Assembly: GCA_963727805.1 (NCBI GenBank)
Contig: CAVSHF010000005.1
Coordinates: forward strand, 1-64,000
Direction of reading: 5' to 3'
From: an uncultured Nitrospiraceae bacterium
GTDB taxonomy: Bacteria; Nitrospirota; Thermodesulfovibrionia; Thermodesulfovibrionales; Dissulfurispiraceae
Length of the DNA stretch: 64,000 nt
Shown: piece after piece, positions 19,293 through 63,580 of the stretch
How positions within the stretch are numbered: the first letter of the stretch is position 1
Layout of the letters: each line of letters starts with the position of its first letter
Made by a program: the position numbers and the translations under genes
The notes under the pieces: model-generated
What the model was told of the DNA's origin: nothing
The model's input: only the letters and a program-made list of their open reading frames with translations
The model's database searches: none

Positions 19293-19645
19293 CCTTTCAG
19301 CAATCGCTTCAACACGTAGCGGCTAGTTCATCATGTGTTAGTCATCAACTGCTCAGCGGAATGACGCTTATTCGGAATCGAGCCGGACACCTCAATGCGG
19401 CTAATGTAAGTATAGCGACATGGAAGCGATAGAACTATTCCGGGTGAAGTTTGAAGGGACTATCGATGATTTCCATTTCTACCCACCAGTGTAAAAAGGA
19501 TACCCTCCGGTGTTGCTTCCTGTGAGCAGGCATTAAGCGTCGAGAAATTTCCCGATACAAGGTTAGCAGGCGAAATCATCGAAAGTAAATAATCGTCCAC
19601 CATAGAGACTTCTTGGTGACATTGAGATACGACCACTGTGATGTG

Positions 19646-19705
19646 CTACTTAAAGTCATCGCCTCAGAGACACGGCATATCATACAAGCTTTCTTCCAGA
19701 AATCT
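19646..19705 (+). repeat. Type-A dispersed site
   Basis: CTACTTAAAGTC-N30-GCTTTCTTCCAGAAATC. Confidence 0.8.
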
Positions 19706-19864
19706 ATATTGAAGTTTTCTCCGATAAGGTGCGCTGTACACCTGATCATTGTCATCAGCATCCTATGCTCAAGACTGATGATTTCTGAAATAATCTGATA
19801 CTTTCGTGCCAGTCATAAAGATGCCATGCTTAACGAAAATTGTGATCTATGTTTTTTTGCCAAA

Positions 19865-19969
19865 TTAGTTCATGCAGTATCTACCTCGCTGAAGCACGAA
19901 GCCGAAAATAATGCCGTCTAGGATACCACTCGTCAACAATCTGTAATGCTCATGCTGGATTACCTCCAT
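19865..19969 (-). pseudogene. YeeE/YedE N-terminal fragment
   Basis: GIIFGFVLQRGRYCMN followed by a stop. Confidence 0.5.
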
Positions 19970-20154
19970 GTTGCATCTCCTTATTATTTCAATTCCGAGA
20001 CAGATAGCGAAGTGTGCTGCCAGATATTCACTTTTTTTAATTTGCATTACAAATTCCGTTAAGAAATCTTCATAATTTATTAATCTTCTCTTAATAAAGT
20101 CGCGCTATAATAGTTGGTAATAATTAGATTATAGTCTTGCTCTTAGAAAACTTG

Positions 20155-20240
20155 AGTGTTGAAAAAGGCTACCTACCCGCGAGGATAGGGCGCAAAGATA
20201 CGGGTCCCTCGGTATCGAAGGATTGCCGGTCTGCCATGAC
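20155..20240 (+). ncRNA. c-di-GMP-I (GEMM) riboswitch
   Basis: GGCTA-CCTACC-CGCGAG-GATAGG-GCGCAAAG...GGGTC...GATTGCCGGTCTGCC matches the GEMM-I pattern. Confidence 0.8.
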
Positions 20241-20263
20241 AATATTTCGATGCAGTTATGTAC

Positions 20264-20297
20264 GCCCGCTTCTTCGGACAAAGGAGCGGGCTTTTTT
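20264..20297 (+). terminator. Intrinsic terminator (riboswitch expression platform)
   Basis: GCCCGCTTCTT...AAGGAGCGGGC followed by T6. Confidence 0.85.
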
Positions 20298-20639
20298 GTA
20301 CCGATCAATCGTATAAAGCATTAGAAGCAGAGGCACAAGCCTAAGCTTTGTATAGCTTATAGCTTTGCTCGGAAAATCTCCTGTGAGTCCGATCTGTTTT
20401 GCACTTTTAGATGTCGAGTACTTTTCCAGTTTGATTAGCTGTCTGCATTGTTTCTTGAGGTGTCCGAATGGCAGATTCTAATGCAGTAAAAAAGAGCAAA
20501 CTCGGGATGAGATCTGGAAGATGTGCCGTAAATATCTTTTCCAGTCGTCATAAAAAGCTGGGATAGCAGTATGGATGAAACTTAAGATAATCTATATAAA
20601 ACAAAGGTGCGTGCGGCTTTGAAGCTTCGGCCCAAGAAC

Positions 20640-21959: not shown

Positions 21960-21962
21960 ATT

Positions 21963-23119: not shown

Positions 23120-23200
23120 GACAGTCAAACGAATGAGCTCACTGAGAGGCGTGGGCAGTTTTACGCCGATCCCTTATCCCTGCATGGTGGCTATCACAAG
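23120..23200 (-). repeat. Degenerate attC-like site
   Basis: GGATCGGCGTAAAACTGCCCACGCCTC core shared with sites near 36133, 62267 and 62641. Confidence 0.5.
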
Positions 23201-23217
23201 CCGAGGCTTCCGCCCGC

Positions 23218-23700: not shown

Positions 23701-24197
23701 GTAAACATACCTTCCTTCATATTTATAAATGTTCTCTGTAATTAGCAGATTATATCAAATAGCAATGAGTAATATTATGGAAAGTTTAACAGGCAACAGA
23801 TACTGTGAGATTCTTACGGAAATAAACAACCGGAGAGAATCGCTGGACTGCCGACTTCTTGGTGTTCTCGAAAACTAACCACTGGGAAGTTCGAATAAGC
23901 GTCAATCCGCTGCGAAGTTGCGGATTGACGTGTGAAGGACTAAGCCGCTGTGCGGATATGTCAATTCAATCGAAGATTATCCTTCCTTATACTATCGGCA
24001 GTGGCATCTTTTAGGATATATAGGAGCAAGTCTTGCTGAACAAGGCTGATAGGCAGCGTCTTTAATGCCCCTGTTTGACCTTTGCGATGATGTGCAAGGG
24101 CCGAAAGTGGCGTTTTCGGACAACAAGACCGTGTTGCGAAAAGAGATGTTTTTTTCGCGGGGCGATATTGAGGCGATTTTTGAAACGACCACGGTTT

Positions 24198-25394
24198 TCA
24201 TCGGCATTGCTCCGGAGGATCGTTGCAGCGGCGGGGAGGCAGAATCTCAATTCGGCGCATCTTGCCTTTTTTGCAAACGGGGCAGGTGGTGACGTCAATG
24301 CCGCAGATCCTTAGCAGCTGTTCCTGCCAGGTCTCAGGCTTGTCCTGCTCTTTCATTACGGTGTTGTGACTGTCAAGAAGCTCGCGGCATGCAGCAATGT
24401 TATCTCTACGTTTCCTGTTTGCCAGCAGGCCGAAGTGCCTTATCCGAACGTATCGATTCGGCAGTACATGCAGAAGGAATCTTCTGATGAACTCATCGGC
24501 CTGCAGAGTCATCACCTTGTGCTTATCGTCATCTGCGTAATCACGCCATTTGAACGAGACCTTGCCGTTTTCGGCCTCGATTATACGATTGTTGCTGATG
24601 GCGATCCTGTGCGTATATCGGCCGAGATATTGCAGGACGCCGCCAACTCCGTCGAAGGGCGGTTTGCAGTAGACAACCCACTTCTTGTGATAAAGCTTTC
24701 TTCTGAGCATCTCGAAGGTATGGGAATCGCCGAGATGACTTATTCCTCCGGGAAAGATAAGATCACCCGCTTCAAAGATCCTTTTCAGATGATCGAGGAA
24801 CTTTCCCCGGAACAACGCCGACATTACCCTGACCGGAATGAAGAAGCCTTTGCGGCAGGATACCCAACTGTCTCCGTCGCAAGACAGGCCGCCTCCGGTG
24901 ACGACACAGTGGATATGGGGATGGTCCATCAGATTCTGCCCCCAGGTATGAAGGATGCTGATGAAGCCGATGCGGGCACCGAGATGCTTCTGGTCATTTG
25001 AGAGTTCGGTGAGAGTTTCGGAGACACAACGGAACAGCAGATCATACATGACCTTCTGATTCATTATGACAACCGGATTGAGTTCCGACGGGATAGTGAA
25101 AACTACATGGAAGTACTGGATGGGCAAAAGGTCCTGTTGTCTGGCCTCAATCCACTGTTCTTTTTTCAGGGTCTGGCATTTGGGACAGTGCCTGTTCCGG
25201 CAGGAGTTGTAGGATATCTCGACGTGGCCGCAATCCTCGCACTTGTCCCTATGGCCTCCGAGTGCTGCCGTCCTGCATATCTCCACGGCGTGCATGGCCC
25301 GCAGATGACGAAGAGGCAAGGAATGAGACTGCCGATAATCGGAGCCGTAGCGGCGTAAGATATCCGCCACCTCCACACCACGAGACTGGCGCAT
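24198..25394 (-). CDS. IS91 family (Y2 HUH) transposase with Zn-binding domain
   Basis: CRTAALGG, SCRNRHCPKCQ, HTWG...HPHIH, YLGRY. Confidence 0.93.
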   Translation of the reverse strand: MRQSRGVEVADILRRYGSDYRQSHSLPLRHLRAMHAVEICRTAALGGHRDKCEDCGHVEISYNSCRNRHCPKCQTLKKEQWIEARQQDLLPIQYFHVVFTIPSELNPVVIMNQKVMYDLLFRCVSETLTELSNDQKHLGARIGFISILHTWGQNLMDHPHIHCVVTGGGLSCDGDSWVSCRKGFFIPVRVMSALFRGKFLDHLKRIFEAGDLIFPGGISHLGDSHTFEMLRRKLYHKKWVVYCKPPFDGVGGVLQYLGRYTHRIAISNNRIIEAENGKVSFKWRDYADDDKHKVMTLQADEFIRRFLLHVLPNRYVRIRHFGLLANRKRRDNIAACRELLDSHNTVMKEQDKPETWQEQLLRICGIDVTTCPVCKKGKMRRIEILPPRRCNDPPEQCR

Positions 25395-25415
25395 CTGGAT
25401 TTACGGCTCAGAGTG

Positions 25416-26261
25416 CTACAGATATTTTTTAGTTGCTATGTCCAGCGGACTGACAACTTTTGCCAGATTCATCTTGCTGACATGAAGATAAACGGTCGTG
25501 GTCGTCGGTGACCTGTGCCCAAGAAGCAGTTGGACATGATGAAGACTAGTCCCCGCCTCGATAAGGTGTGTCGCAAAACTATGCCTCAGAGTATGCACGC
25601 AAGCATTCTTTGCGATGCCGGCGCGTTTCTTGGATTTTTGGAATATCTGGTAGATGGAGCTTATAGTGATATGGGTGTTGTCCTTCTCGCCTTCAAATAA
25701 CCACTCCTCCGGGCGATATTCCCTCCAATACTGTCTTAAGCACTCAAGGGCAGTCTGCGATAAGATGGAGTAACGGTCCTTTGCCCCTTTTCCAAGACGG
25801 ACATAAACCAGCATACTCTTGCTGTCGATATCTGTCACCTTCAGTCGCGCAGCTTCACTTATTCTCAACCCGGCAGAATAGGTGATCATCAGAAGCGCCT
25901 TGTGCTTGATGTTTTCAGTGACTGAGAAAATCGCCTGGACTTCGGACAAATCCAAAACGAGAGGCAGCTTCTTCTGGGCTTTCGGATATTGAATATTATT
26001 GACTACATCCGCACGATTCAGGGTCGTATTATAAAGGAACTTGATCCCGGCCACATAGGTTCTGTATGTCCCCCTCGTTAAACCCCTTTCTTCCATAAGA
26101 TGAACCAGATACTGCTTCACTTCCTCTGTACTCAGTTCTTCAGGAGACTTGCCGAAATAATTCTCAAGGTTACCGACTTCCCGGAGATATTTCCTTTGGA
26201 CACCAAGCGTAATGCCCTTCAACTGAAGATCCTGCAGCAACCGTTCTTTCAACGCGCTCAT
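25416..26261 (-). CDS. Tyrosine recombinase associated with IS91-like transposase
   Basis: YSAGLRISE, GKGAKDR, HTLRHSFATH, LLGH, TTVY; no IntI-specific insertion. Confidence 0.92.
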   Translation of the reverse strand: MSALKERLLQDLQLKGITLGVQRKYLREVGNLENYFGKSPEELSTEEVKQYLVHLMEERGLTRGTYRTYVAGIKFLYNTTLNRADVVNNIQYPKAQKKLPLVLDLSEVQAIFSVTENIKHKALLMITYSAGLRISEAARLKVTDIDSKSMLVYVRLGKGAKDRYSILSQTALECLRQYWREYRPEEWLFEGEKDNTHITISSIYQIFQKSKKRAGIAKNACVHTLRHSFATHLIEAGTSLHHVQLLLGHRSPTTTTVYLHVSKMNLAKVVSPLDIATKKYL

Positions 26262-26447
26262 AATACAATCTCCTTTGAAACTGTTTTCTGCCAGCTCATG
26301 CCGGCAGCACAGCAAAGAGAGATTGTAAAAAGACTTCGATGGTTCAACAAAGAAATGTGATCAGGCAAAAGTGGCTATTCGAAAAAGATGGTACTACTAC
26401 TGATAGGCCCTTGCTAATCGAATCCACCGCGCAGCGGTTTAGTCCTA

Positions 26448-26507
26448 CTACTTAAAATCTCAATCGAGGCGCATGGTGCCTGGGGTAGAGATTATTCCTG
26501 GAAATCG
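26448..26507 (+). repeat. Type-A dispersed site
   Basis: CTACTTAAAATC-N30-GATTATTCCTGGAAATC. Confidence 0.85.
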
Positions 26508-26624: not shown

Positions 26625-27002
26625 ATGATCACTGAGAACGAATTAACTGAAGCCTTTGATAAGGCTCTGATTAAAGGACCAGAGAATTTGGATGGACGTG
26701 ATCGTCAACTTTACCTCATTCAGGATTTCATACTTGAGTGGGAAAACGGGGCTTTTACTGGATACTTATATAATAAGATTCCAGATTGGAAATATATTAA
26801 CGAGACAATTTCAGCCATGAAGACTCATGGGTTAACCGATCTGTCAAACATTGTAAAAGAAGCAGTCGACCTTTTTCAAAACTATGAGGAACCCTATCCT
26901 ACAACCACTTGGTCAGGCGTTCTTAAATTGTATGATCCATCTGGCAAATTGCAGGATTTGGACGGCAAATGCAAGAATCTTACTAACTATGGAATACACT
27001 AA
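26625..27002 (+). CDS. Hypothetical protein (DUF4375-like), cassette-like gene
   Basis: E.ENG.F..Y.YN; preceded by GTTGGGG and followed by an attC-like site. Confidence 0.7.
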   Translation: MITENELTEAFDKALIKGPENLDGRDRQLYLIQDFILEWENGAFTGYLYNKIPDWKYINETISAMKTHGLTDLSNIVKEAVDLFQNYEEPYPTTTWSGVLKLYDPSGKLQDLDGKCKNLTNYGIH

Positions 27003-27005
27003 TAA

Positions 27006-27066
27006 CCCCAACAATTTGCTGCAACTGAGCGCAAAAAGCCGCGCTTGGTGAGCCCTATGTAATATT
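27006..27066 (+). repeat. attC-like site
   Basis: ACCCAAC...GCTGCAACTGAGCGC...GCGC...GTGAGC...GTAATAT directly after the stop codon. Confidence 0.55.
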
Positions 27067-27245
27067 GTTTGTTTCTTTCGGCAATTATCGAATGCGTGAT
27101 ACTTGCGCTAGTAATGACTTCTTGGTGAAATTATTGACCCGATAGTCAAAAAAGGTGATCACCCAAATCGATTGTTTCTGCACGTACCCTTGATTGCCGG
27201 CTTGCTCTGTTTAAAAAAAATACAGTATCAAGGTTTCTAATGGCT

Positions 27246-27295
27246 ATCACCAAATTCCTGATACTGGCAAAAGAAATGACTTTCTTAGTTACATC
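27246..27295 (-). repeat. Type-B dispersed site (inverted) downstream of recombinase
   Basis: ATCACCAAATTCCTGATACTGGCAAAAGAAATGACTTTC-TTAGTTACATC; matches the reverse complement of 10141-10192. Confidence 0.8.
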
Positions 27296-27485
27296 CAATG
27301 GCCGGGCTCCAATGATACCTCTGAGTCAGTATAGGCAGTCTATGCTCAAGAGTAGTGATTTCTATAATAATCTGGTACCTTTTGACATGCTTCGGCATAT
27401 AAACCCAGTAGCGATACGGCAGTTAAAGTACAATCGTCGCTCTTAAACTCTGCAGACCTTGGCAATCGAAATTTAGTTTATGTTC

Positions 27486-28325
27486 CTATTTACCATGCAG
27501 AATGTCCATCCACCTGATGGCCTCGGTGTCGCTGATCTTTCCCAAGTAGATCTGGGTAGTTTTCAGATCCTGATGCCTGAGTAAGACTTTTGAGATGATC
27601 TCAAGTGGGACACCATTCCTGCTGGCATAAGTAGCTGAGTGCCTTCGAAGATCATGAGGCGATATGCTTACGTTCAACTTCATGCCGAGTCCGGTGACCA
27701 GGTTCCATACCGTACTGTAACAAACAGGAAACACCCTGTCGGACGGGGACAGTTTCTGACTGGCAATATACTCAGCTAACCTAACAGAGATATGTTCTGG
27801 CATGAAGGCCAACTCCTCGTCCTTGCCCGATTTGGGGCCTTGGATAATGATTTTCCGGCCGGAGACATCTGCTGCGCGAAGGTTAAGAACTTCCCCAATT
27901 CTTAGCCCGCAGCGCGCTTGAAGTTCCAGTATTAGCCGATCTCGGGTATTTTTGGACTTGAAGATGATCTCATCCACTGTTTCTTTGTCCAGAATCTTTC
28001 GGGGCCGATGTTGGGCCATTTTGAATGTTTTTGACAGTGATGCCGTACTGCAGGGACTCTTGATGTTCAAGTCGGTAGCTTCGATGATGTAGTTAAAAAA
28101 CGATTTTATCTGAGCATACCGGAGATGGCGCGTGGACCTGCTCAAACGTTCGGTGCACTCCTCTAGAAATCTGCAGATGTCATCGGAAGATACAGACTCC
28201 ACCGGTTGATCAGAAAAGCTCATCTGTAACTGGGTTAGAAACCCTCCGTAACTCCTTATGGTATTTTTCTTCACGTTACCCTTCTGATGCTGCTTGAAGA
28301 GTTCAACTGCCTCTCGGATAGTCAT
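27486..28325 (-). CDS. Stand-alone Xer-like tyrosine recombinase (279 aa)
   Basis: GLRIGE (R), PKSG (K), HDLRR (HxxR), LRH, TQIY (Y); GGAGG RBS; all catalytic residues intact. Confidence 0.92.
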   Translation of the reverse strand: MTIREAVELFKQHQKGNVKKNTIRSYGGFLTQLQMSFSDQPVESVSSDDICRFLEECTERLSRSTRHLRYAQIKSFFNYIIEATDLNIKSPCSTASLSKTFKMAQHRPRKILDKETVDEIIFKSKNTRDRLILELQARCGLRIGEVLNLRAADVSGRKIIIQGPKSGKDEELAFMPEHISVRLAEYIASQKLSPSDRVFPVCYSTVWNLVTGLGMKLNVSISPHDLRRHSATYASRNGVPLEIISKVLLRHQDLKTTQIYLGKISDTEAIRWMDILHGK

Positions 28326-28497
28326 ATCACACCTCCGTTGTTTAGCCAGGGTCTGCATAGTTTCAGTGTACGACACAATCAGCCATGTGGTATTATTGTG
28401 CCAATCATGAGCGAAAAACGCCCAAGAGTGGCAGTCAATATGATATTGGAAGAAATGCATCTTTAATAACAGTTATCCGGTGAGGGGGTATCTAGAC

Positions 28498-28821
28498 ATG
28501 GCCGAGATGACGTGGTCCAAGACTGAAAAAGAATTAGCACGCCGGATATTTGACAACGCGTATCGAAGGGAGTGTGATTCGATCGCCGCTAGGCTCAAGG
28601 AAATGATTGCATGGGTGTCCAAGCCATCCGACATGTGGGAAATTCATAACTATCTCACTGAGCAAAGGGACTTAACTGACGCCAAATACGATTACAGATA
28701 TAGTAGGCTCATATTAGTGTTCGCACAACTCTTGGATGAGGGATGGATCAATGAGAAGGATCTCGAAGGGCTGCGCGAAGAGAAGATTGATAAAATAAAA
28801 AAGATGGCTGCATTTAGATAG
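28498..28821 (+). CDS. Conserved small hypothetical protein
   Basis: WSKTEK...AY.RE...YDYRYS.L..VFA.L..EGW. Confidence 0.7.
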   Translation: MAEMTWSKTEKELARRIFDNAYRRECDSIAARLKEMIAWVSKPSDMWEIHNYLTEQRDLTDAKYDYRYSRLILVFAQLLDEGWINEKDLEGLREEKIDKIKKMAAFR

Positions 28822-28945
28822 TACTGGTCTCCATTCTGTAAAAACTGGATGTTGCCCCAAAACTTCTTCTGAAAGGCTTCAATGCGCAGAGTATGACGAA
28901 ATCAATGATTATCAAAATTTATTATTGAAATCGGATTCGCGCTAA

Positions 28946-29100
28946 CTAATTAAAATCTCCATCGTGGCACATTGGGTTCGAGGGAAAGATTATTTCTGGA
29001 AATCGTCGCTGCCATGGCACCCAACGTCATCTTTCGCCGTCAGTTTTCTTGACAATGTCGTCATTTTCTGCTGTAATTTTAAAAGCTCGTTAATAACATT
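28946..29100 (+). repeat. Type-A site plus promoter module (paralog of 26448-26600)
   Basis: CTAATTAAAATC-N30-GATTATTTCTGGAAATC...TTGACA-17-TGTAAT...TAATAACA. Confidence 0.85.
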
Positions 29101-30297: not shown

Positions 30298-30547
30298 ATG
30301 CGCCTCCTCGACTGTACCTCCTAAATGGTACTTGACAGCGAAACAATTTTCAAGGAAATCTTTTGAGTTAGATTCTTGGGTACTTTCGACCAGTTTATGC
30401 TTCCATTTTTAACTTTCGGCCAATTTATGAGTACAGTCATATTGTGTGCGATGGAAGTTATTAATGGCGCAAGCGCCACTTTTGACTTCCACTCTGAGCA
30501 GGCCTCTTGAATTCCGAAATTAATCGTCGAAATCGGATCCTCGATAA

Positions 30548-30652
30548 CTACTTAAAGTCATTACCGCAGTGATACGGCTCATTACTCAAGTTTTCGTTCG
30601 GATGTCGATACCTGCGCTCGTCGGTTGAGAATGTTTGTGCCTACTGAAAGTC
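30548..30652 (+). repeat. Type-A site followed 93 bp later by a type-B start
   Basis: CTACTTAAAGTC at 30548; CTACTGAAAGTC at 30641. Confidence 0.75.
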
Positions 30653-30967
30653 CGCACATTGCGATAGACCGTCGCAATGTGAATTTCTGAGAATAACCTT
30701 TATCAGCAAGGCAGTCTCGCTCAAAAGAGTGAAAATAAAAATATTTGTTGCCGACATGTATGCAAAGAAGTATCATTGTGTCTAGGATGGCTCTATGGAA
30801 GCAAGATCGAGTTGAGGGACGAAATATTATATTGCAGACCTGACCCCGATGATTATTCTTTCCCCCATTGCATGTTACAATGACTCATGAATAACGAAGG
30901 ATCCATACTGATTTTTAAAGCACCCTCCTGTCCCTCGACCGGTCCAGCCTGCTGATTTGATATCTCT

Positions 30968-32162: not shown

Positions 32163-32250
32163 ACAATTTTACTTTCAAAATTAATGCATTTGTCGGCAAA
32201 AGCGAAGTGACACTCCCACGCGGCAAGCCGCGGGGCATCTTGAGCGCAGC

Positions 32251-32679
32251 TCAAAAGAGCTGCGCAGGCCCTTGCTCATCTTGACGATGATGCCTTATAT
32301 ACTTTTCGACAATTTGCCGAGTCATACGGTCTCCGACAGTTCGGGCGAAATATCTATCCTCCCACAACTGCCCGCTCCACAATCGTTGCTTGATTCGAGG
32401 GAACTCACGAAACAGCTCCCTTGCGCTTATACTTTTCAGTGCCCTAACAACTTGCCCAATTGAATACTTCGGATGAAACGACATCAGTATATGAACGTGG
32501 TCTACTCCGACTTCCATCTCCTGTATCTCAAATTCATACTCGTCGCTGATTTCACGAAAGAGCTGTTCCGCTCGTTGCCTAAGTTCAGCATCCTGAAATA
32601 TTGTCTTGCGTCGTTTCGGACACCATACCAGGTGGTATGTCGTGTCGTAGACCACATGACTCGCCCTTTTGAGTGCCAT
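32251..32679 (-). CDS. tnpA: IS200/IS605 Y1 transposase
   Basis: YHLVWCPK, DHVHI, LKSISAR, LW...YF, YI..H. Confidence 0.92.
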   Translation of the reverse strand: MALKRASHVVYDTTYHLVWCPKRRKTIFQDAELRQRAEQLFREISDEYEFEIQEMEVGVDHVHILMSFHPKYSIGQVVRALKSISARELFREFPRIKQRLWSGQLWEDRYFARTVGDRMTRQIVEKYIRHHRQDEQGPAQLF

Positions 32680-32785
32680 ACCATATGTTATACCACACTA
32701 CGCAAGGGCCTTAGCGGATAAGGGAGACTCCCTGTCTCCCTTATAACCCTCTAGGCAAGGCATGCATTCATCCCACGCGGCAAGC

Positions 32786-34466
32786 AGGCTGTCCGACAAT
32801 TATCAAGTTATCCGGTGGTAGAATATATTTAAGAACGATATCAAGGAGTACACCCGATGGCATACATTGAGTCGTATGGAGGGCAATCCTGGCTACTGCC
32901 GCCGAGTTTAGAAGATATGATACCCGAAGATCATATTTGTTTTCTCATTGAAGGATTGGTTGACTCCCTGGATTATGGTTGCTTCGATATCCGCTATTCA
33001 GGTGCCGGACATCCGGCATATCATCCAAAAATGCTGGTGAAGTTGCTGATCATGGGAGTTCTGGACAGGGTGCGCTCATCTCGTCGACTGGCACGCAATG
33101 CCAGAGAGAACGTGGTGTATATATATTTGGCGGAGAAGCTGACTCCTGACTTCAGGACTATCAGCGATTTCAGAAAGAACAACCCTGATCTACTAAAGGA
33201 AGTCTTCAAGCACACAGTTAGTTTTGCCAAAGAGGAAGGATTGTTGGATTTGTCGCATCTGTCGACAGATGGAACCAAAGTGAAGGCAAATGCATCAAAC
33301 AGGCGAGTATTAACAAAAGAGGAGTTGGCGGTTCTGAGAAGCTTTGTCGATGGTGAGCTTCAGGAGTGGGCAGAGATTGATGAGAGTGAGGATCGGCAGT
33401 TCGGTGAACTACGGGGTAGCGACCAACTGTCCCGGCAGGGCAAAAAACTTGTTCAGAAAGCTGCACAGTACTATGTTAAGAGGGCTAAAGAAGAAGGGCA
33501 TGTTTTTATAGGTCGACTCAGAGAAGGTCTTCAAGGAGCTCAAGACAAAGTTAATGAGGAAGGGCTAAAGCAGGTAAGCACGACAGATCCTGATAGTCGT
33601 TTTATGAAAAATAAGAAAGGCAGGATAGAGCTTTCTTATAATCCTCAGGTGACAGTGGATAAGGGTGGGTTCATTTTGGCTAGTGACGTGGGGCAGAATG
33701 CTGCAGATGTCAGCCAGTTGCAACCTCAGGTTATACAAACCACAGAGAATCTTGGCGGAATTGCTGATAGTATTATTTGGAGTTTTGATTCTGGATATTT
33801 TAGCGGTGAGAACATTGCATTTCTATCGGACAGGAAGATAGATGCATACATGCCTGACAATAGTGGGACGCGGGCAAACAACCCATACGACAAGAAGAAC
33901 TTTACATACAATAAACAAAGGGATGAGTATATTTGTCCTGCTGATCACCCGCTAACATTCTTGGGCGAACATTTTGACAGACAGAGGGACAAGATGGTGA
34001 GAGTCTATCGTGGTCAGAGATGCTTGGGATGTGAGCATCAGCGACTGTGTACCAAACAGAAGGACGGCATACGCTCTCTGAAGGTGTTCCCTCACGAAGT
34101 TCACTGCAATGCGATGACTGAAAAAATGAAAACGCCTGCAGCAAGATATATATATAAGCTTAGACAACAGATTGTTGAACCTGTGATCGGCGATATCAAG
34201 GAGAACAAAGGATTGCGAACATTTCTGACGAGAGGAATTAATTCGGTAAGGTCGGAATTTAACCTTGCCTGTACGGCAGTAAATCTGAAAAAGATATGGG
34301 AATGCCTGAAGGGAAGAGGAAAGCCTCCGAAAGAGGGCAACTACTGCCATACGCCAAGGAAGCTTTTGCTGGAGATACTATGTATAAAGCAGATAGCCCC
34401 GTTATGTTTTCAGGATGGCGAGGCATCCGTCATTTGTCTCTAATTTCGATAATTGTCGGACAGCCT
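32786..34466 (+). mobile_element. IS1182 family element, copy 1
   Basis: IR AGGCTGTCCGACAATTATC; flanked by GCAAGC on both sides. Confidence 0.92.
32857..34443 (+). CDS. IS1182 family transposase
   Basis: PAYHP.ML, SSRRL, PDFRTISDFR, DGTKVKANAS, VEPV.G.IK. Confidence 0.93.
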   Translation: MAYIESYGGQSWLLPPSLEDMIPEDHICFLIEGLVDSLDYGCFDIRYSGAGHPAYHPKMLVKLLIMGVLDRVRSSRRLARNARENVVYIYLAEKLTPDFRTISDFRKNNPDLLKEVFKHTVSFAKEEGLLDLSHLSTDGTKVKANASNRRVLTKEELAVLRSFVDGELQEWAEIDESEDRQFGELRGSDQLSRQGKKLVQKAAQYYVKRAKEEGHVFIGRLREGLQGAQDKVNEEGLKQVSTTDPDSRFMKNKKGRIELSYNPQVTVDKGGFILASDVGQNAADVSQLQPQVIQTTENLGGIADSIIWSFDSGYFSGENIAFLSDRKIDAYMPDNSGTRANNPYDKKNFTYNKQRDEYICPADHPLTFLGEHFDRQRDKMVRVYRGQRCLGCEHQRLCTKQKDGIRSLKVFPHEVHCNAMTEKMKTPAARYIYKLRQQIVEPVIGDIKENKGLRTFLTRGINSVRSEFNLACTAVNLKKIWECLKGRGKPPKEGNYCHTPRKLLLEILCIKQIAPLCFQDGEASVICL

Positions 34467-34744
34467 GCAAGCCGCGGGGCACTCTGCAAAGGCTTTCGGT
34501 AGTCGCCCTAAAATAGCAAGAAATGCAAGCAAAATAGCTATGACAATGAGAAAGATAAACCACCATTTCGTCGGTTTCGCGAGTGATCCTGAAGGATTCT
34601 TCACTAGACCGAAGGTTTTAATATTTTTCCCCATCCTTACATGATTAGTATAACCTATTGATGTCGTATACAAAAGCCATTGACTAGTATTTTGGGGACA
34701 ACGTTCATCTACACCCGCAAAGCTTTATTTCAACCTAGAAACTT

Positions 34745-35445
34745 CTACTTATAATCGCGAGTCCGCCCGTTAAGCTACAGATACGATGGTCGAGTAGGCC
34801 GGTGGAATCGCACCACCAGCCCCTCACAGATTCCGTACGTGAACCTCTCGATTCATACGGCTCGTGTCAATCATCAAGTTGAGTCTTTGCAGTCTCAACC
34901 ATACACATTGAGCGATAGTTCCTCCTGGTCACCCAGTTGACTGGTACTCTTTGTGGATTGACCCATCCCCTTCCCTCCACGGCTTATTATCACCGCTTCA
35001 TCGGTACTATTGGACGGTCCGACCCCTTCACCTGCATCGATACTTTCCCCCTTCGTTTGCACTTATAGGGTTTTCTCTTAGCATCAGATGAAGAGTTCCC
35101 GCGTTCCACACAGGAGCCTAGATCAGCTTCATGCCGCCTCTATGCCGGACGCCGTTCAGGCAGTAAACAGGTATCTCCTGAACTAATCCTGATGCAAAGT
35201 AAGAACATCAGTTTTGACGTCGTCCTTTTCCTTTCGACACCTCATCAGCGGTTCGCTTACGCTCATCTCTCTGATCCATCCCTGACACGATCTAGTCGTG
35301 CCTTTTCCTTTAACGCTCACCACCGGAGCCTTTCGACTACAGCAGCTTAAGGTGGGTTGAAGCCTGCTCCTGCAAGCCGGCTTCGAGGGGCCAACCCTCA
35401 TCTTCCTGTGCAGCCTCGTGGCGCACTTACGACCGGAAAGTATCT
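34745..35445 (+). repeat. Type-A site interrupted after +44 by an ORF-less intron
   Basis: CTACTTATAATC...TG|intron|TTACGACCGGAAA. Confidence 0.8.
34789..35426 (-). ncRNA. ORF-less group II intron, copy 1 (638 nt)
   Basis: 5' GTGCG; domain V GAGCCGTATGAA...CACGTACGGA; 3' ...CTCGAC; 5' domains highly similar to the RT intron at 45111-46945. Confidence 0.9.
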
Positions 35446-37168: not shown

Positions 37169-37228
37169 CTACTTATCATTGCGATTGCGTCACCCACGCC
37201 GCGGACGCTATGTTTCAGCTGATAATTG
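37169..37228 (+). repeat. Type-A dispersed site (divergent)
   Basis: CTACTTATCATT-N30-TGTTTCAGCTGATAATT. Confidence 0.6.
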
Positions 37229-37867: not shown

Positions 37868-37927
37868 CTACTTAAAATCTCGATCATGTCATTTGGGGCC
37901 AGAGCTGGAGAATATTTCTGGCAATCA
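37868..37927 (+). repeat. Type-A dispersed site
   Basis: CTACTTAAAATC-N30-GAATATTTCTGGCAATC. Confidence 0.8.
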
Positions 37928-38641: not shown

Positions 38642-38759
38642 AAAAAAAAGGAACAGTAACGGGCATGGACAACACGGAAACAAGCGCAGGCATTACCGGG
38701 CGGCATGCGGAGTCTAAGTGGGACGTCTCAGCTACCCGATCCTCGATAACTACTCCTAC

Positions 38760-40405
38760 CCCAGTTAATTCATAAATTTTCAGAACTGAGCCGAATTGAA
38801 GCTGTTTCATCGCTGAGAGCACGGTAGAATGGATTGTCAGTCAACTTTTTGAGGTGACGAGAGGCTTGTGGTCGCATGCAATACGATGTATGGGACACTG
38901 CAGCCCTGTTTTGAGCGCACTTCACCCGTTGGAACTTTACTGTGCTTTTGGGCTTCGGGAAATTTCAGCAGGTATCAGCGGCAAGTCGTCGATATGCCAA
39001 GGCAAAGATGTCTTTCCAAGGATAGCCGCTCGCCAGGCGGAACCATACCCGTCTGGCTGTCTGAACTACTTGGCCGCCGATCTTTAAGATCCTTGTCCTG
39101 AGCTGCTGAATCTGCATCGATGAGAACTCTGTTTCAGCAAGCGCTTGTCTGAGCCGCAGTACGAGCCAATATGCAGCCATGTGCAGAAAAAGCCTGAACT
39201 GATTGGCAGCAAAACGATGGCAACTTAACCGATCCGCCTTCAGCCCGTTTTTGAATTCATCAATGCGCACCTCGCAAGTGCCACCGCGCTCTGTGTAGAA
39301 CTCGTAGAGTTGTTTGGCCTCCATAGAAAGATTCGTCACCACAAACCGACGGTTTGGTCCCTGCGGCAGCCATTCGGCCTTCATGATTACTCGGCGTTCT
39401 TTTTCCCAGCTCTGTGCCTGATAAAAACCCTCTGCAAAGAGTCGTTGCTTCTGTCCTGTCTTTTCGTGGAGAGATTGTACCTTCTCAAGAAGTCTTTCGA
39501 TCATTCGCTCCAGTACGTCGTTGCGAATAAGGCCGATTACATAACTCAGCTTTTCTTTCTCGCAGTACTCATATAAGGCCGGGATCGCAAACCCCGCGTC
39601 ACCTCGTATGATGATCTCAGCATTGGGAAACGCTGCCTGGAGCTTCGCCACTATCCGCTTCAAGATTGAAACCACGCCATAACTTGCGTGTCGATTGCCT
39701 GCCCTCAATACTGCTGTGATCATCTCTCCTGTATCAGCATCATAGACCAACAAAGGATGATACATATACTGATCATAGTAGCCGTGAAAAAAGGTGAGCT
39801 GTTGGTCCCCATATGTAGGATCGTCGGTGCCGTCGACATCAATGATGATTCGCTTTGGCTTACGCTTCCGGTTGCGACGGACATACAGATCAACAAACCA
39901 CTGCCCCATCCGATAAAGATCTTCTTGGGTTACGGTGTTCTCCAACCTCGACAGTGTAGGCTGCGATCCCAGTTCCTTGTCGCTTGGCATCCTGCCGCAA
40001 GCTGCTTTCAATGCGGGATCTTTCCTCAGAAAGTTCGCGTCATTGCAGTCTTCATAGCCTGCCACTATCTGATATATTCGCTGTCTCAGAAGAGTCAACA
40101 AGTCATGATCTGTGTACCGACAATCCCGCCGGTCTGTGATGCAGCTCGCCAATCCTTTCAAGAGTCCCAATGCTTGATCGGCCTGCCTGACAAGCAGAAG
40201 TCCGGAGTCAGATGTGATCTCTCCGCCTCCAAAATCCACCGTCAGTTTGCGCTTCCGCAGGAATGAAAATCCAAGCTGTTCTGTGTTACACTTTGTCATA
40301 GTAGCCAATGTCCTTTCTTGGGTTTTTGTTGCTCGCACCTTCAATAATACCAAGGTTCAAAGGACGTTGGCTATTTTTTTGCCGATTATTTATGAATTAT
40401 CTGGG
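38760..40405 (-). mobile_element. IS1380 family element inserted in a type-A site (site starts at 38750)
   Basis: IR CCCAG(T/A)TAATTCATAA; 4-bp CTAC duplication. Confidence 0.92.
38965..40299 (-). CDS. IS1380 family transposase
   Basis: F.GG.ITSDSG, GYED.ND, SQPTLSRLEN, RGDAGF, Y..RG..E..I.E.K. Confidence 0.93.
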   Translation of the reverse strand: MTKCNTEQLGFSFLRKRKLTVDFGGGEITSDSGLLLVRQADQALGLLKGLASCITDRRDCRYTDHDLLTLLRQRIYQIVAGYEDCNDANFLRKDPALKAACGRMPSDKELGSQPTLSRLENTVTQEDLYRMGQWFVDLYVRRNRKRKPKRIIIDVDGTDDPTYGDQQLTFFHGYYDQYMYHPLLVYDADTGEMITAVLRAGNRHASYGVVSILKRIVAKLQAAFPNAEIIIRGDAGFAIPALYEYCEKEKLSYVIGLIRNDVLERMIERLLEKVQSLHEKTGQKQRLFAEGFYQAQSWEKERRVIMKAEWLPQGPNRRFVVTNLSMEAKQLYEFYTERGGTCEVRIDEFKNGLKADRLSCHRFAANQFRLFLHMAAYWLVLRLRQALAETEFSSMQIQQLRTRILKIGGQVVQTARRVWFRLASGYPWKDIFALAYRRLAADTC

Positions 40406-40778
40406 CTACACATCACCGCAGGGATATTGCTCATTATTCAAGCTTTCTTCCGGTAATCTAGACCGAAGCTCTTCCAATGGAAATCTTACCTGCACCTGAT
40501 ACACAACATTCGGCCATCTAAGAGACAGTGTTGGTTTCCAGTATAATCTGCTAAAACATTTTGTCTCAATTCCTTCCTGTACACCGCAAGAAGAGCACCA
40601 TGTGAGGCACTGCGATTTTTGTCTGATAAGTAACGAGCCAAAGGAGATACATGAGATGCGACCTGCACCGGGATTATTGTGCTTGTCGTCTCATCCATTT
40701 GGGGCTATAGTGTTAGTACAAAGGTGAGTGGTGAGTATTGCAATGCACTGCAGTGAACTTAGAGGAAGGAGAAACACA

Positions 40779-41873: not shown

Positions 41874-41890
41874 CACTCCCCGTGGCTAGC

Positions 41891-44021: not shown

Positions 44022-44082
44022 CTACTCATAATCTCGAGTCCGCTCGATATGGTACAGATACTAGGTTACGACCGGTAATTGT
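44022..44082 (+). repeat. Type-A dispersed site
   Basis: CTACTCATAATC-N30-GGTTACGACCGGTAATT; close copy at 44551. Confidence 0.85.
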
Positions 44083-44550: not shown

Positions 44551-44612
44551 CTGCTTATTATCTCGAGTCCGCTCGTTATGGTAAAGAGACTAGGTTACGA
44601 TCGGTAATTGTT
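44551..44612 (+). repeat. Type-A dispersed site
   Basis: CTGCTTATTATC-N30-GGTTACGATCGGTAATT. Confidence 0.85.
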
Positions 44613-47164: not shown

Positions 47165-47224
47165 CTACTTAAAATCTCCATCTCTGCATATGAGGCGCGG
47201 GGTGGAGATTATTTCTGAAAATCT
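47165..47224 (+). repeat. Type-A dispersed site
   Basis: CTACTTAAAATC-N30-GATTATTTCTGAAAATC. Confidence 0.85.
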
Positions 47225-48186: not shown

Positions 48187-48439
48187 TACTCCCTCTTTAT
48201 CCCCGCACGTGAAATGGATTGCCCCGTGTTACGTTCCTGTATGAATATATGCCCATGCGACCTTCCTTTTATCATCTTTTCGCAACCTACAGCACAAATT
48301 TGTTCCTACTTATAACCTTTAAAAAAGCCTACCATGAGTACACTGATGGGTACGAGCGCAAATCTTGAGTGGTCGGTTAGCAATAACACCGACTTATTCT
48401 CAGTTATTGAAAGCTGCAACTACTGACGATTTGCGAGAG

Positions 48440-50492: not shown

Positions 50493-50552
50493 CTACTTAA
50501 AATCATCATCGTGAGGACACTGCTCATTATGCAAGATTTCTTCCAGAAATCT
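50493..50552 (+). repeat. Type-A site interrupted at +58..60 by IS1111
   Basis: CTACTTAAAATC-N30-GATTTCTTCCAGAAATCT; resumes AGACTGAAGCTCTTC at 52145. Confidence 0.85.
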
Positions 50553-54500: not shown

Positions 54501-54560
54501 CTACTTATAATCGCGAATCTGCCCACCACGTCACAGATGCTTTATTACAACCGGAAGTCC
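54501..54560 (+). repeat. Type-A dispersed site
   Basis: CTACTTATAATC-N30-TATTACAACCGGAAGTC. Confidence 0.75.
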
Positions 54561-55374: not shown

Positions 55375-55444
55375 CTACTTATAACTACTTAAAGTCATCG
55401 CCGCAGCGATACGGTTCAAGGCTCAAGATTTCTTCCCGTAATCA
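55375..55444 (+). repeat. Type-A site with duplicated start (CTACTTATAA-CTACTTAAAGTC)
   Basis: Box 2 GATTTCTTCCCGTAATC at +43 from 55385. Confidence 0.85.
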
Positions 55445-59582: not shown

Positions 59583-59870
59583 TATTTAGCAAGTTGATGC
59601 ATGGATTACAAATGCAGTGGAAATTAACCACTTAGAATTGAAGTTCAACGCCTACCAACGTGGAGTTATAATCTCCTCGCAATCAAGAGCGGCACCCTTT
59701 TCTGGAAAATGTGGGCTCCACCGACGAGTCTTGAATTTTACTTTCACCAGGCAGAATGATTTTCAGTTGTACTGTAGCTCACCGACAGAAAATTGACGTT
59801 ACGTATAGCATGTCGAAATCATCGATAGTAAATAATCGCCCACCATAGAGACTTCTACTCCTACACATCA

Positions 59871-61292
59871 AATATGGTATAACCAGAGTATGGACGGTTG
59901 TTAACCGTTCATAAGGGGCAGGAGGACGTGGTTTCCTACAGGGTCAAGAATCCTTTAATAAGTCAGTCCCCTGTCTCCCAAAGCCATGATAAATTGATAG
60001 GGCTACGAGCTCTTGTAAAGATGGAGATATGGTTGGGAGGCATTCCTGCCTAAGGTCCTATGCGGGAGGTGGTTGGAAATGAGCAAAGCATTCGTTGGCA
60101 TCGATGTGTCAAAAGAGCACTCGACTGCCCAAAGCATCGACAGTGACGAAAAGAAGCTTTTTTATTTAAGGTTCTCAATGGACTCAGCGGGGTTCGCAGA
60201 GCTTCGGACTGCTATTAAAGGATGCGGGGTGAACCCGGAGGATATTGTAGTGGCGATGGAGTCCACCGGCTGTTATCATATCAATCTCTTTTCCTTTCTA
60301 TGTGCGGAGGGACTTCGTTGTGCGGTAGTAAATCCGCTTCTGATATCCAAATTTGTTCAGGGATCATTGAGAAAGACCAAGACAGATAAGAAGGATGCGA
60401 TGACCATAGCGCAGTTTCTTCTGAACAATGAGAAGAAGCTGTGCGTGGTAACGTCATCCCAAGATGCGCAGGATCTGAGGGATCTGGCCAGGGAACGAGA
60501 GTCTCAGTCATGGATGATTGCATCACTTAAGAATGACCTCAAACGGCTGCTGCAGAGCACCTTCCCCGAGCTTGAGACACTCCGCAAGAATATTTACACT
60601 GAGACGATGCTGAACTTTGTTCGACAGTATCCATCGGCCAGATTAATCCGGGAGGCAAAGAGGAAAGATATCGACAAAGCACTCATCTGCCCCGGGGAGA
60701 AGCGCAAAAGAGTCCAGATTAGCGCCGACGATCTTATTGAGGCGGCAAAGCGTTCGGTGGGCTCAGCTGCTACAGCGAAGGAGCTTATCGTCTCTGAGAA
60801 GGCAACCACGATCCTGTATCTTCAGGAAAAGTGTGAGAAGATTACCGAGGCATTGGTGGATGCGTGTGAGGCAACACGGATCGAAGATCTTGAGATAATG
60901 AAGACGCTCGACGGGGTGAAAAACATCCTTGGCAGCAGCTTTCTAGCGGAGATGGGAGAGTTGTCCAACTTTAAATCATATAAGAGCTTGATAGCATACA
61001 TGGGGTTCGATCCATCGACTCATCAATCGGGGAAGCATGTGGGGCCAAGCAAAATATCCAAACGAGGGAATCGTCATATGAGGCGCATCACCCATATAAT
61101 GACACTCGGTTCAATAAAATCTGACAATATATTCAGAGAATATTATCTCAGAAGGATAGCCGAAGGATTGCCTAAGATGAAGGCATTAATGGCGACTTCT
61201 CACAAGCTAATAAGAGTGATCTTCTCTATGCTTACACATAGGATGCCGTTTAAAAAGGAGGTGGCTGCTGTATAGTTGACTTATTATCAACA
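59871..61292 (+). mobile_element. IS110-group element inserted at a CA core in a type-A site (site starts at 59855)
   Basis: Removal restores CTACTCCTACACAT-CA-CCGCAGGGATATTGCT, matching the IS1380-free site at 38750. Confidence 0.85.
60079..61275 (+). CDS. IS110 family transposase
   Basis: VGIDVSK, MESTG, KTDKKDA, YMGFDP..HQSG. Confidence 0.93.
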   Translation: MSKAFVGIDVSKEHSTAQSIDSDEKKLFYLRFSMDSAGFAELRTAIKGCGVNPEDIVVAMESTGCYHINLFSFLCAEGLRCAVVNPLLISKFVQGSLRKTKTDKKDAMTIAQFLLNNEKKLCVVTSSQDAQDLRDLARERESQSWMIASLKNDLKRLLQSTFPELETLRKNIYTETMLNFVRQYPSARLIREAKRKDIDKALICPGEKRKRVQISADDLIEAAKRSVGSAATAKELIVSEKATTILYLQEKCEKITEALVDACEATRIEDLEIMKTLDGVKNILGSSFLAEMGELSNFKSYKSLIAYMGFDPSTHQSGKHVGPSKISKRGNRHMRRITHIMTLGSIKSDNIFREYYLRRIAEGLPKMKALMATSHKLIRVIFSMLTHRMPFKKEVAAV

Positions 61293-61444
61293 CCGCAGGG
61301 ATATTGCTTATTAATCAAGGTTTCTTTCGATAATCAAGACAATTACTGTCTGCGTTATTGGATTGATTTCGGGATTTTATGGTATGTGTAACCGATATCC
61401 CGAAATCGGAAAAGCTTCTTGAGATAAGATTCAGCTCCTCACGC

Positions 61445-61774
61445 TTATCGACTTACTTTGGCGGCAACAAGACGATTCAAGCTTACTCCAGTTTCAGCAG
61501 ATTCGATAGCAAGCAATCTGTGTGTTTCGGGTGTAACGCGAACCACAAATTTTCCACTGTAGTGCCGATTTGCGATCGGTTCTGGAATAGGCTCTCCAGT
61601 CTGTTTCATATCATTAACCGCCTCGGCGACAACTTTGCGGATGCCTTTCAGGGCAGCTTCGGGCGTTTCTGCTAACCAACTTAAGCTTGGAAATTCGGCA
61701 CAAAGTCCGACATACTCCTCGTCGTCTGTCGACCAAGTCACCCTATATGTATAATGATCATTCTTCAATTCCAT
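61445..61774 (-). CDS. hicB: HicB family antitoxin
   Basis: EFPSLSW.A.TPE.AL, YSGKF.VR.....H..L. Confidence 0.88.
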   Translation of the reverse strand: MELKNDHYTYRVTWSTDDEEYVGLCAEFPSLSWLAETPEAALKGIRKVVAEAVNDMKQTGEPIPEPIANRHYSGKFVVRVTPETHRLLAIESAETGVSLNRLVAAKVSR

Positions 61775-62018
61775 AATTCACCTCCAAGATCTCAATGGCT
61801 TTAATCACCTGTTTTACCTGATAGCTCTTAGCTTTCCCTTTAGCATTTTGAATGTTTATCCGCGGATCTCCCTGCCAAGGCGTTCTATATATTCTATGAC
61901 TGCTTCCTTTTTGCCTAGCAGCGCCAAAGTAGTGGTCACAGACGGTGCATAAGTCAGCGAATCTGACATTGCCAGGATTATTCTTCATCTGTGAAACCAT
62001 TTCAGCAATGTTTGGCAT
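61758..62018 (-). CDS. hicA: HicA family toxin
   Basis: NP.NVRF.DL, GSSH, AK.YQVKQV; overlaps hicB. Confidence 0.85.
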   Translation of the reverse strand: MPNIAEMVSQMKNNPGNVRFADLCTVCDHYFGAARQKGSSHRIYRTPWQGDPRINIQNAKGKAKSYQVKQVIKAIEILEVNYGIEE

Positions 62019-62187
62019 GGTTTAATTATAGTATCAATAATAGTACTATGTCAATGGCTGTCAATATAAATATCAACATTGCACTTGAAAATCTAAGGTA
62101 TGACGAATCAGCATGATAATCCGACGGCCATTTATTTATTGCGGACGGGCGGATGGATAAACAATGGATGTGCCCAGTTCTCAGTAA

Positions 62188-62246
62188 CTACTTAAAATCA
62201 ATACCTGAGGGCTTCCTGAATGTACTTGTGAGTACGTGGAAATCAT
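62188..62246 (+). repeat. Type-A dispersed site (divergent)
   Basis: CTACTTAAAATC...GAGTACGTGGAAATC. Confidence 0.6.
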
Positions 62247-62314
62247 CGGCGGTTCAGTTCGCCCCGAGGCGTGGCAATTTTACACCGATCCACGAAGCGC
62301 TTCGTTATGGAGCC

Positions 62315-62614
62315 TTATTCTTTCTCATCCTCTGGATACCAAGTAAACCCTGGCTCAACTTTTCCGTTTAACCCGTCAAAACTCTTCAGTTCGACAATAT
62401 CTTCAACATAAAACAGCGGCGGATCGTCTTCTTTATTATGAAGTTGGGTGTTAATGTCCTCTCTTCTTCTTATAGTCTCTATCGCCTTTAATGCGGCGTC
62501 ATCAGGATTAGTCGCCTCAACCTGACATGATGTATAGAAACCATGTCTGGCATTCCCATTGCCAAGGTTTATGATGAAGTTATGACCATTTATCAATACG
62601 CGATATTTATTCAT
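62315..62614 (-). CDS. Hypothetical cassette-like protein flanked by attC-like sites
   Basis: GGCGTG..TTT.AC.CCGATCC cores at ~62267 and ~62641, each ending GTTATG. Confidence 0.65.
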   Translation of the reverse strand: MNKYRVLINGHNFIINLGNGNARHGFYTSCQVEATNPDDAALKAIETIRRREDINTQLHNKEDDPPLFYVEDIVELKSFDGLNGKVEPGFTWYPEDEKE

Positions 62615-62749
62615 ATTGTTAGGCATAAAGCTCAACGGGAGGCGTGTGAAGTTTCACGCCGATCCCGCGCAGCGCCTTGTTATGTTTCATTTCTTTTAAT
62701 CGTACACGTCCCTTTGTCATCTTTCTGAGACTATAACACAAAATTACTT

Positions 62750-63580
62750 CTACTTATAATCTCCAATGCGGGGAAACTGCTCATTTTGTAAGGGTCGAGT
62801 AGGCCGGTGGAATCGCACCACCAGCCCCTCACAGATTCCGTACGTGAACCTCTCGATTCATACGGCTCGTGTCAATCATCAAGTTGAGTCTTTGCAGTCT
62901 CAACCATACACATTGAGCGATAGTTCCTCCTGGTCACCCAGTTGACTGGTACTCTTTGTGGATTGACCCATCCCCTTCCCTCCACGGCTTATTATCACCG
63001 CTTCATCGGTACTATTGGACGGTCCGACCCCTTCACCTGCATCGATACTTTCCCCCTTCGTTTGCACTTATAGGGTTTTCTCTTAGCATCAGATGAAGAG
63101 TTCCCGCGTTCCACACAGGAGCCTAGATCAGCTTCATGCCGCCTCTATGCCGGACGCCGTTCAGGCAGTAAACAGGTATCTCCTGAACTAATCCTGATGC
63201 AAAGTAAGAACATCAGTTTTGACGTCGTCCTTTTCCTTTCGACACCTCATCAGCGGTTCGCTTACGCTCATCTCTCTGATCCATCCCTGACACGATCTAG
63301 TCGTGCCTTTTCCTTTAACGCTCACCACCGGAGCCTTTCGACTACAGCAGCTTAAGGTGGGTTGAAGCCTGCTCCTGCAAGCCGGCTTCGAGGGGCCAAC
63401 CCTCATCTTCCTGTGCAGCCTCGTGGCGCACTTACGACCGGAAATCGAGACCAGCGCTTGTCGGTAGAGAATGTTATAGCCACCTGAAAGTCATCTATTT
63501 TACCAGTACCAGAAATTTGGTGATTTCCCGAACAAACTACCATGACCGCTTAGTTGAGTGCTTCCTAGTTACACGCTGAG
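62750..63580 (+). repeat. Type-A site interrupted after +44 by an ORF-less intron, followed by a type-B site at 63481
   Basis: CTACTTATAATC...GG|intron|TTACGACCGGAAATC; CACCTGAAAGTCATCTATTTTACCAGTACC. Confidence 0.8.
62794..63431 (-). ncRNA. ORF-less group II intron, copy 2 (638 nt)
   Basis: Appears identical to 34789-35426. Confidence 0.9.

Follow-up and report, generated by a model that had tools for sequence, protein, structure and literature searches.

Repeats in a Nitrospiraceae genomic island as probable junctions of a chromosomal small-module array mixed at a 7-bp core

Introduction

The first 64 kb of contig C5 (CAVSHF010000005.1) from an uncultured Nitrospiraceae bacterium (GCA_963727805.1; genome G000, 3.9 Mb in five contigs), here called the window, contains repeats that begin with CTACT and appear with different partners on their left and right sides. 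The window forms an island in which small genes without relation to one another lie among insertion elements. What are these repeats, and what has exchanged their flanks? Our analysis favors, with a probability of roughly two in three, the reading that they join the small gene modules of a chromosomal array, the module ends having been mixed within a 7-bp core. A tyrosine recombinase that works on double-stranded DNA would be the likely agent. We observed dyad sites, unlinked flanks, duplicated modules bounded by the core, and co-oriented arrays. That a cassette system exists, whichever enzyme serves it, is highly probable.

Results

Positions were numbered with the C of the CT in the core as +1. 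Each junction is a 17-bp dyad in which two 5-bp arms, a left one of roughly GAYWW and a right one of WARTC, enclose a 7-bp core (here CTACTTA) that is the center of symmetry. A second dyad, with core CTTCCRG, lies 29-30 bp after the first, the two dyad centers being 46-47 bp apart. The least conserved bases were those adjoining the core (-1 and +8). Many left flanks are the arms of other site types, some from an oppositely oriented site; 19571-19613 is of the latter sort, and through its copy at 59814 a head-to-head junction arises. At 30514-30693 five dyads stand in a run with steps of 34, 47, 46, and 46 bp. Modules between plus-strand junctions ranged from 93 bp to a few kb with insertion sequences (IS) discounted. 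Of 82 Nitrospirota sites (L333-L352), 18 had an extended -10 box at +28 of the linker, directed into the module.

Site counts were set against controls, namely the reversed genome or matches to a control pattern. A position weight matrix at >18 bits gave 65 matches in the genome compared to 1 in the reversed genome, and a hidden Markov model at E<0.05, with known elements removed first, gave 66 compared to 0 in the control. When both sub-families (type A and type B) were pooled, the genome held 88 junctions in about 25 clusters, and the arrays were spread over many loci. Within the window island, 18 of 22 sites were on one strand.

The flanks of these sites reassort independently, as a sequence-only reading of the window had claimed. 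Left and right flanks of 46 intact sites (sites with gaps or damaged cores were excluded) gave a Mantel r of -0.008 (p=0.58). For the same sites, r was 0.52 within the right side and 0.22 within the left (0/2000 permutations each) compared to -0.03 across. The Syntrophales-type set behaved the same way, with r=0.03 across and 0.38 and 0.17 within the sides. Individual pairs cited earlier were also recovered: 19571-19613 and 59814-59856 are identical at 41 of 43 positions and continue as TGGTG and ACTCC, respectively; GATCCTCGATAA stands upstream of both 30548 and 38750; TTCTCAGTAA stands upstream of both 44022 and 62188; and CACAAA.TT precedes 44551, 48306, and 62750, with a fourth copy at 61544 that has no site. 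The duplicated start at 55375 was likewise seen, 55375-55384 and 55385-55394 being near-duplicates (CTACTTATAA and CTACTTAAAG). One pairing failed. The 32-nt right part said to be common to 38750 and 59855 is contiguous nowhere in the window (0 matches), and at 38750 it emerges only once the IS1380 at 38760-40405 is removed. The pairing was wrong because the letters after CTACT at 59855 are the left end of IS110, which is alike in all 8 copies. The first 16 nt of the 38750 junction match the IS110 left junction as well and are likely an IS110 scar.

The reading of these sites as hybrid attL/attR-like junctions from repeated strand exchange is supported by the unlinked flanks, by alternative joints, and by duplicates bounded by the core. 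The crossover that it placed at TAA|CT or TT|CT is not the principal one; linkage breaks at +8 to +11. The interpretation was right in kind, and its position was off by 4-7 bases. In a sliding test on 85 sites, linkage was lowest at +8 to +11. The core showed linkage with the left flank (r 0.08, p 0.003) and none with the right linker (r -0.01), and the right arm showed the opposite. Because this signal came partly from damaged cores, we repeated the analysis on cleaner sets of sites with the core CTTCCTG. There, pairs with the same left flank differed in 0/21 cases at each of the 7 core positions and in 6/21 at +8; pairs with the same right part differed at +1 and +2 at the background rate (15/24 and 14/24). 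Since same-left pairs share the core and same-right pairs do not, CT is part of a 7-bp core whose partner is the left flank. In 8 of 8 cases, a variant at core position +4 was tied to a single left-end family. With G319 set aside, comparisons within genomes had +2 to +7 tracking the left flank and +8, +10, and +12 the right; -1 was loose on both sides. We infer that the effective exchange lies to the right of +4 and to the left of about +8 to +11. In most cases, then, the core moves together with the left flank, and the exchange maps to the right half of the core, from +4 to about +8. A weaker point of exchange is the second dyad, with an r of 0.29 for linkage across it. The sole pointer to the left core border is the 19571/59814 pair, where IS110 sits in the core; it suggests that this border is usable too.

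Modules bounded by the core were found joined to different neighbors and in duplicate. Units are flanked by direct copies of an att-like core, and assembly breaks coincide with cores. The recombinase module at 27178-28952 recurs in genome G003 at 89-95% identity with different neighbors; assembled contigs from 3 studies begin at 27176, and contigs from 2 studies end at 28952-28954. Other assemblies rejoin left flanks of the window to new right parts (34756>30548, 34736>19646, 37122>19644, 44542>55384, and 59843>44019). The single-contig closed genome G271 carries a 1056-bp two-module block twice, at 99.5% identity, running from +1 of one core to +7 of another, and G381 carries a 355-bp duplicated block (98.9%) that starts at +1. 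Across loci, 15 of 464 alignment ends fell at the core compared to 2.9 expected. Elsewhere in G000, C3:794967 and C3:802308 share an identical 60-bp left flank and an IS110 and then continue into different right parts, a pattern that could have come from recombination through the IS copies or through the core.

Sites of this kind extend well beyond the window. Recombinase loci of Syntrophales have the same layout with the core CTTCCTG, and this pattern occurred in 91 of 121 genomes of the Syntrophales order (1229 matches compared to 15 in the control, up to 142 per genome), in 59 of the 251 genomes from the window's order (15 matches in the control), and in 14 of 151 genomes of the phylum of G281 (1 control match). 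Core variants (CTACTTA, CTTCCTA, CTTCCTG) are lineage-bound; the strict CTACTTA pattern gave real sites in the window's genus only and matched 8 metagenome contigs. A 20-kb DNA search of 68 family genomes returned mostly IS matches, and viral contigs held neither a site match nor a relative of the 279-aa recombinase described below. Forty regions, picked because they hold sites, contained 147 sites compared to 9 in the control; 85 of 97 close neighbors were co-oriented, and the next gene was co-oriented with its site in 96 of 131 cases. Modules carried 1-3 genes each, with sites mostly 0.3-5 kb apart and diverse cargo. The 258 nearby proteins formed 221 clusters. Among the 140 representatives scanned there was one small recombinase, the rest being enzymes, regulators, repeat proteins, and unknowns. 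Arrays starting about 10-420 bp downstream of a same-strand tRNA gene were seen at L228, L233, L236, L237, L240, L244, L247, and L249 and in G000 C3 near 2245900.

The window encodes a candidate enzyme, a 279-aa tyrosine recombinase with its codons at 27489-28325. It is one of 13 PF00589 matches in the genome, the others being two Xer-like proteins, eight identical IS91-linked proteins, one TOBE-fused protein, and one that is broken. The protein has core-binding and catalytic domains only, and the catalytic set R142, K165/H224/R227/H251/Y260 is conserved in an alignment of 28 homologs. Its best structure match was XerA (E 3e-11). It scored 50 bits on TIGR02249 against a cut-off of 265, which does not identify it as IntI, and fell below all named NCBIfam cut-offs; the ESM Atlas returned generic integrase clusters only. 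There are at least 2518 relatives, the closest homologs being from Nitrospiraceae and Thermodesulfovibrionales.

Site density was 66 per Mb beside the 279-aa gene compared to 3.5 per Mb genome-wide (19-fold). The gene was co-oriented with sites in 40 of 43 loci compared to 96 of 131 for cargo genes, and a site lay 100-125 bp past its stop codon in 15 of 77 loci. Genomes with the gene were richer in sites (median 9 versus 3, p=0.0009), and within the window's order sites were present in 15 of 26 genomes with the gene compared to 44 of 225 without it (p=7e-5). Decayed fragments, 56-86% identical, were present in the site-rich genomes G271, G265, and G267, which shows that the gene was once there and then decayed, as with CALINs (attC clusters that have no integron integrase). 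The chance that the 279-aa recombinase is the enzyme of this candidate system is about even.

An inverted repeat hugs the 279-aa gene (27440-27485 and 28326-28385 in the window), its arms lying between the -10 box and the ribosome site and just past the stop codon. Repeats of at least 11 bp were found in 47 of 57 loci compared to 2 of 57 controls (loci L027-L104), with lineage-specific sequence on both arms, and may represent pairing of the RNA over a long range or a site for self-binding. In G000, C3:2045672-2045752 holds what is left of the C-terminal part of another copy of the recombinase, and the far end of the window island (C5, about 71400-72500) has a broken integrase of phage type together with a tRNA fragment. 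Three other recombinases were considered and rejected. The IS91-linked recombinase, tried as a common enzyme, was not found in G227, G319, or G381; the 340-360-aa recombinase of G390, G349, G297, and G363 is a tRNA-linked island integrase; and the 200-aa recombinase of the G319 arrays has no close relative in other loci or in the window's genome.

The junctions did not fold in the manner of attC. Across 37 sites, mean z was -0.02 to +0.32 relative to dinucleotide shuffles on both strands. As controls we used five attC-like stretches of the window, two of which gave z of -2.1 and -4.3; the other three gave no such values. With z about 0, attC-like folding of the junctions was rejected. The attC-like stretches themselves (23132-23200, 27001-27066, 36117-36177, 62247-62312, and 62622-62686) lie within modules, and two fold well; they are possibly captured integron cassettes, though an intact IntI was not found in the genome.

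Three unrelated elements home to the sites. All 8 genome copies of the IS110 at 59860-61278 lie within a site core. The IS91-family element with its own recombinase has 8 genome copies, all ending before a C-starting core-like 7-mer and arm, 6 of them with a second dyad, and it also occurs in G271, G265, and G003. A group II intron without an open reading frame (ORF) had 8 of its 10 copies in the second dyad. Another group II intron, at 45113-46945, encodes a reverse transcriptase and splits a plus-strand gene; its 5' part is 90% like the ORF-less copies, and it likely mobilizes the 10 identical ORF-less copies. The junctions and associated parts of the window are listed in Table 1. Apart from these, an IS1182 was seen twice within the hairpin end of IS200-like elements (32204-34500 and 41878-43740), and a c-di-GMP-I riboswitch (20157-20238) lies upstream of a HAMP-GGDEF gene.

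Table 1. Junctions, modules, and inserted elements along the window.
Feature	Positions	Strand	Remarks
Two junctions	8838..8988	-	Cores at 8988 (CATGTCG) and 8896 (CGACTGA)
Type-B junction	10148..10205	+	Core CTACTGA
Type-B junction	17952..18009	+	Core CTACTGA
Type-B arm of oppositely oriented site	19560..19618	-	Core 19612-19618; contains left flank 19571-19613; 27-bp linker to 19646
Type-A junction	19646..19704	+	Core CTACTTA 19646-19652, 5-bp arm, 30-bp linker, second 17-bp dyad with core 19693-19699
IS91-family element	23892..26447	-	Own tyrosine recombinase (25416-26315); directly before core 26448
Junction	26448..26506	+	Core 26448-26454; module up to 27177 with DMP19-like gene
Recombinase module	27178..28952	.	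Cores CTGCACG (27178-27184) and CTAATTA (28946-28952) at ends
Inside recombinase module			Decayed minus-strand type-B site near 27289; FRP gene
279-aa simple tyrosine recombinase gene	27486..28325	-	Candidate enzyme; only intact copy in genome
Five-dyad run	30509..30698	+	Cores 30514, 30548, 30595, 30641, 30687; holds empty 93-bp module
Junction	34745..35441	+	Core 34745-34751; ORF-less group II intron (34789-35426, minus) in second dyad
Junction	37169..37227	+	Core 37169-37175
Junction	37868..37926	+	Core 37868-37874; methylpurine glycosylase gene on module
Junction interrupted by IS1380	38750..40458	+	IS1380 at 38760-40405, CTAC duplication
Junction	44022..44080	+	Core CTACTCA 44022-44028; then 529-bp single-gene module
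Junction	44551..44609	+	Core CTGCTTA 44551-44557; to the right 90% like 44022, to the left unrelated
Junction	47165..47223	+	Core 47165-47171
Core and arm	48306..48317	+	Second dyad not recognizable
Junction	50493..50551	+	Core 50493-50499; second IS110 family (to about 52145) at end of second dyad
Junction	54501..54559	+	Core 54501-54507
Two cores 10 bp apart	55375..55443	+	Cores 55375 and 55385; type-A right part
Head-to-head junction	59809..61335	+	Reversed type-B arm, core 59855, type-A arm; IS110 (59860-61278) at core ACT
Core and arm	62188..62199	+	Module to 62749: one gene flanked by two attC-like stretches
Junction 62750 and type-B junction 63481	62750..63538	+	Group II intron (62794-63431) in second dyad of 62750; empty module

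Discussion

A 7-bp core between inverted arms is established tyrosine-recombinase geometry. Under the favored reading, a recombinase tetramer would pair two junctions with the help of the second dyad, a module would be excised as a circle, and the circle could be inserted at any junction. The second dyad would serve as an accessory binding site, setting the polarity and occasionally being used itself. Arrays would often begin just downstream of tRNA genes, and the 279-aa recombinase would ride on one module, being gained and lost and leaving orphan arrays behind like the CALINs of integrons. We propose the tetramer and the circle because of the core between inverted arms and because TnpI of Tn4430 (IRS) has extra self-binding sites that set direction (PMC2847244); the proposed system would resemble it in having a simple tyrosine recombinase with a core site and further binding sites of its own. 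That the core tends to follow its left neighbor suggests a single effective exchange close to the right end of the core with mismatches tolerated elsewhere, much as IntDOT tolerates mismatches in the overlap (PMC2817482). Exchange despite partial overlap identity would be common to both.

Several observations weigh against this reading. The rejoined flanks were seen in assembled contigs, which have short sides (21-42 nt) and come from other strains. Just 24 of 121 and 26 of 251 genomes were found to have the 279-aa gene, it is missing from 10 of the 12 genomes with at least 25 sites, and a profile search found no trace of it in G297, G319, G390, G381, G344, G227, or G112. G271 has the 99.5% duplicated block yet only a fragment of the gene. 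Kinship, and genomes that are richer in islands or better assembled, may underlie the association of gene and sites, and the inverted repeats flanking the gene are unlike the sites. In G319, +10 tracked the left flank (0.96 versus 0.68 background), which indicates that the cut is not sharply placed.

The same arrays could instead be moved by host XerC and/or XerD with accessory proteins, like dif modules or Xer-exploiting elements, which we consider unlikely. XerC and XerD are the sole tyrosine recombinases common to all the listed site-rich genomes, the linkage minimum at +8 to +11 is near a XerC-type cut, the core variants are lineage-bound, and in G319 the stretch from -1 to +10 agrees with the XerC arm of the host at 7.8 of 11. 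For G000 and G271, however, that value was 4.2 and 5.0 of 11, respectively, and a XerD arm was absent (2.8-4.4 of 11; TTAT at +17 in 0 of 126 sites). Best matches to Xer arms were no better than reversed controls except for XerC in G319, outside of which +8 and +10 track the right part, and most genomes with XerCD have no sites (192/251 and 137/151). Full dif or pdif identity was ruled out against the host dif by the missing XerD arm. The chromosomal dif of G000 is at C3:516959-516986, at the GC-skew switch.

Slightly less probable still, the modules could be non-autonomous transposons at a fixed, duplicated 7-bp target, or could be moved by an RNA-guided IS110-type or another enzyme. Direct copies of the core do bound modules, core variants occur in runs in the G381 arrays, and IS110, IS91, and the group II intron all target the sites. 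Yet -1 and +8 are the least conserved positions, contrary to what transposon tips would show, and the +4 variant stays with one left family in 8/8 cases, which a copied target would not yield. No transposase was found among the 140 of 221 cargo representatives scanned, and the IS91 element was missing from the searches of G227, G319, and G381. Very unlikely is that the sites bind regulators or are promoter modules, with flanks mixed by unrelated genes or IS activity. In its favor, the 17-mers are palindromic, the -10 box occurs at +28, and some examples are IS ends, but left flanks form families of their own, duplicated blocks end exactly at the core, sites occur on either side of genes and also in empty modules, and assemblies break at cores.

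In how it works, the junction array mixed at the core is like an integron or an array of xrs modules, but it does not pass the tests that define these, namely the hairpin, IntI, and the dif layout. Co-oriented modules of 1-3 genes, diverse cargo, arrays that outlast their recombinase, and targeting by IS and group II introns are shared with integrons and CALINs (10.1101/030866); half of CALINs there are in genomes without IntI. An attC is reported to act as a folded single strand (PMC3458562, PMC2727003), whereas the sites here do not fold; they are dyads of conserved sequence built on a 7-bp core, each with a second dyad. Unlike integrons, the arrays have neither IntI nor a single platform, probably lack attI, and stand at many loci, and the modules bring both ends and often a promoter too. 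Acinetobacter pdif/xrs modules are likewise small, lie between short recombination sites, and have site-homing IS families (PMC6449649; 10.1101/2022.12.17.520857, the latter also the precedent for IS families homing to recombination sites), but the present sites lack a XerD arm and the 11-6-11 layout, are mostly in direct orientation, and are chromosomal.

Our modules also differ from the products of tandem accretion in being 0.1-5 kb long and numbering dozens to more than 140 per genome, with own integrase, excisionase, and transfer genes absent (140 of 221 representatives scanned). Integrative and cis-mobilizable elements that accrete in tandem pile up at a shared core with hybrid att junctions, and members without an integrase are moved in trans or in cis. 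Tandem SGI1 and modular PAISt are reportedly such cases. The likeness to them is that units are bounded by direct copies of the core.

The available text of a recombinase-subgroup survey (PMC8138268) names no matching group. No description of these sites was found in the literature, subscription papers and supplements being mostly outside coverage, so that absence from print is not established. We offer tentatively, at slightly worse than even odds, that this is a third, undescribed cassette system beside integrons and Xer modules, in which a 279-aa recombinase on a self-mobile module would shuffle cassettes of a single gene at double-stranded 17-bp dyads with a 7-bp core, with up to 140 or more sites per genome, a range covering Nitrospirota and Desulfobacterota, and IS and intron families specialized to the sites.

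The hundreds of natural hybrid junctions form a set in which a simple recombinase's tolerance of divergent arms can be mapped, and the very small candidate enzyme with its short sites could find use in ordered gene stacking. Cassette birth becomes testable, many modules holding their own promoter in the site linker. If the reading is true, these arrays would give anaerobic bacteria of sediments and digesters a large route for acquiring genes, one expected to escape tools based on attC or dif.

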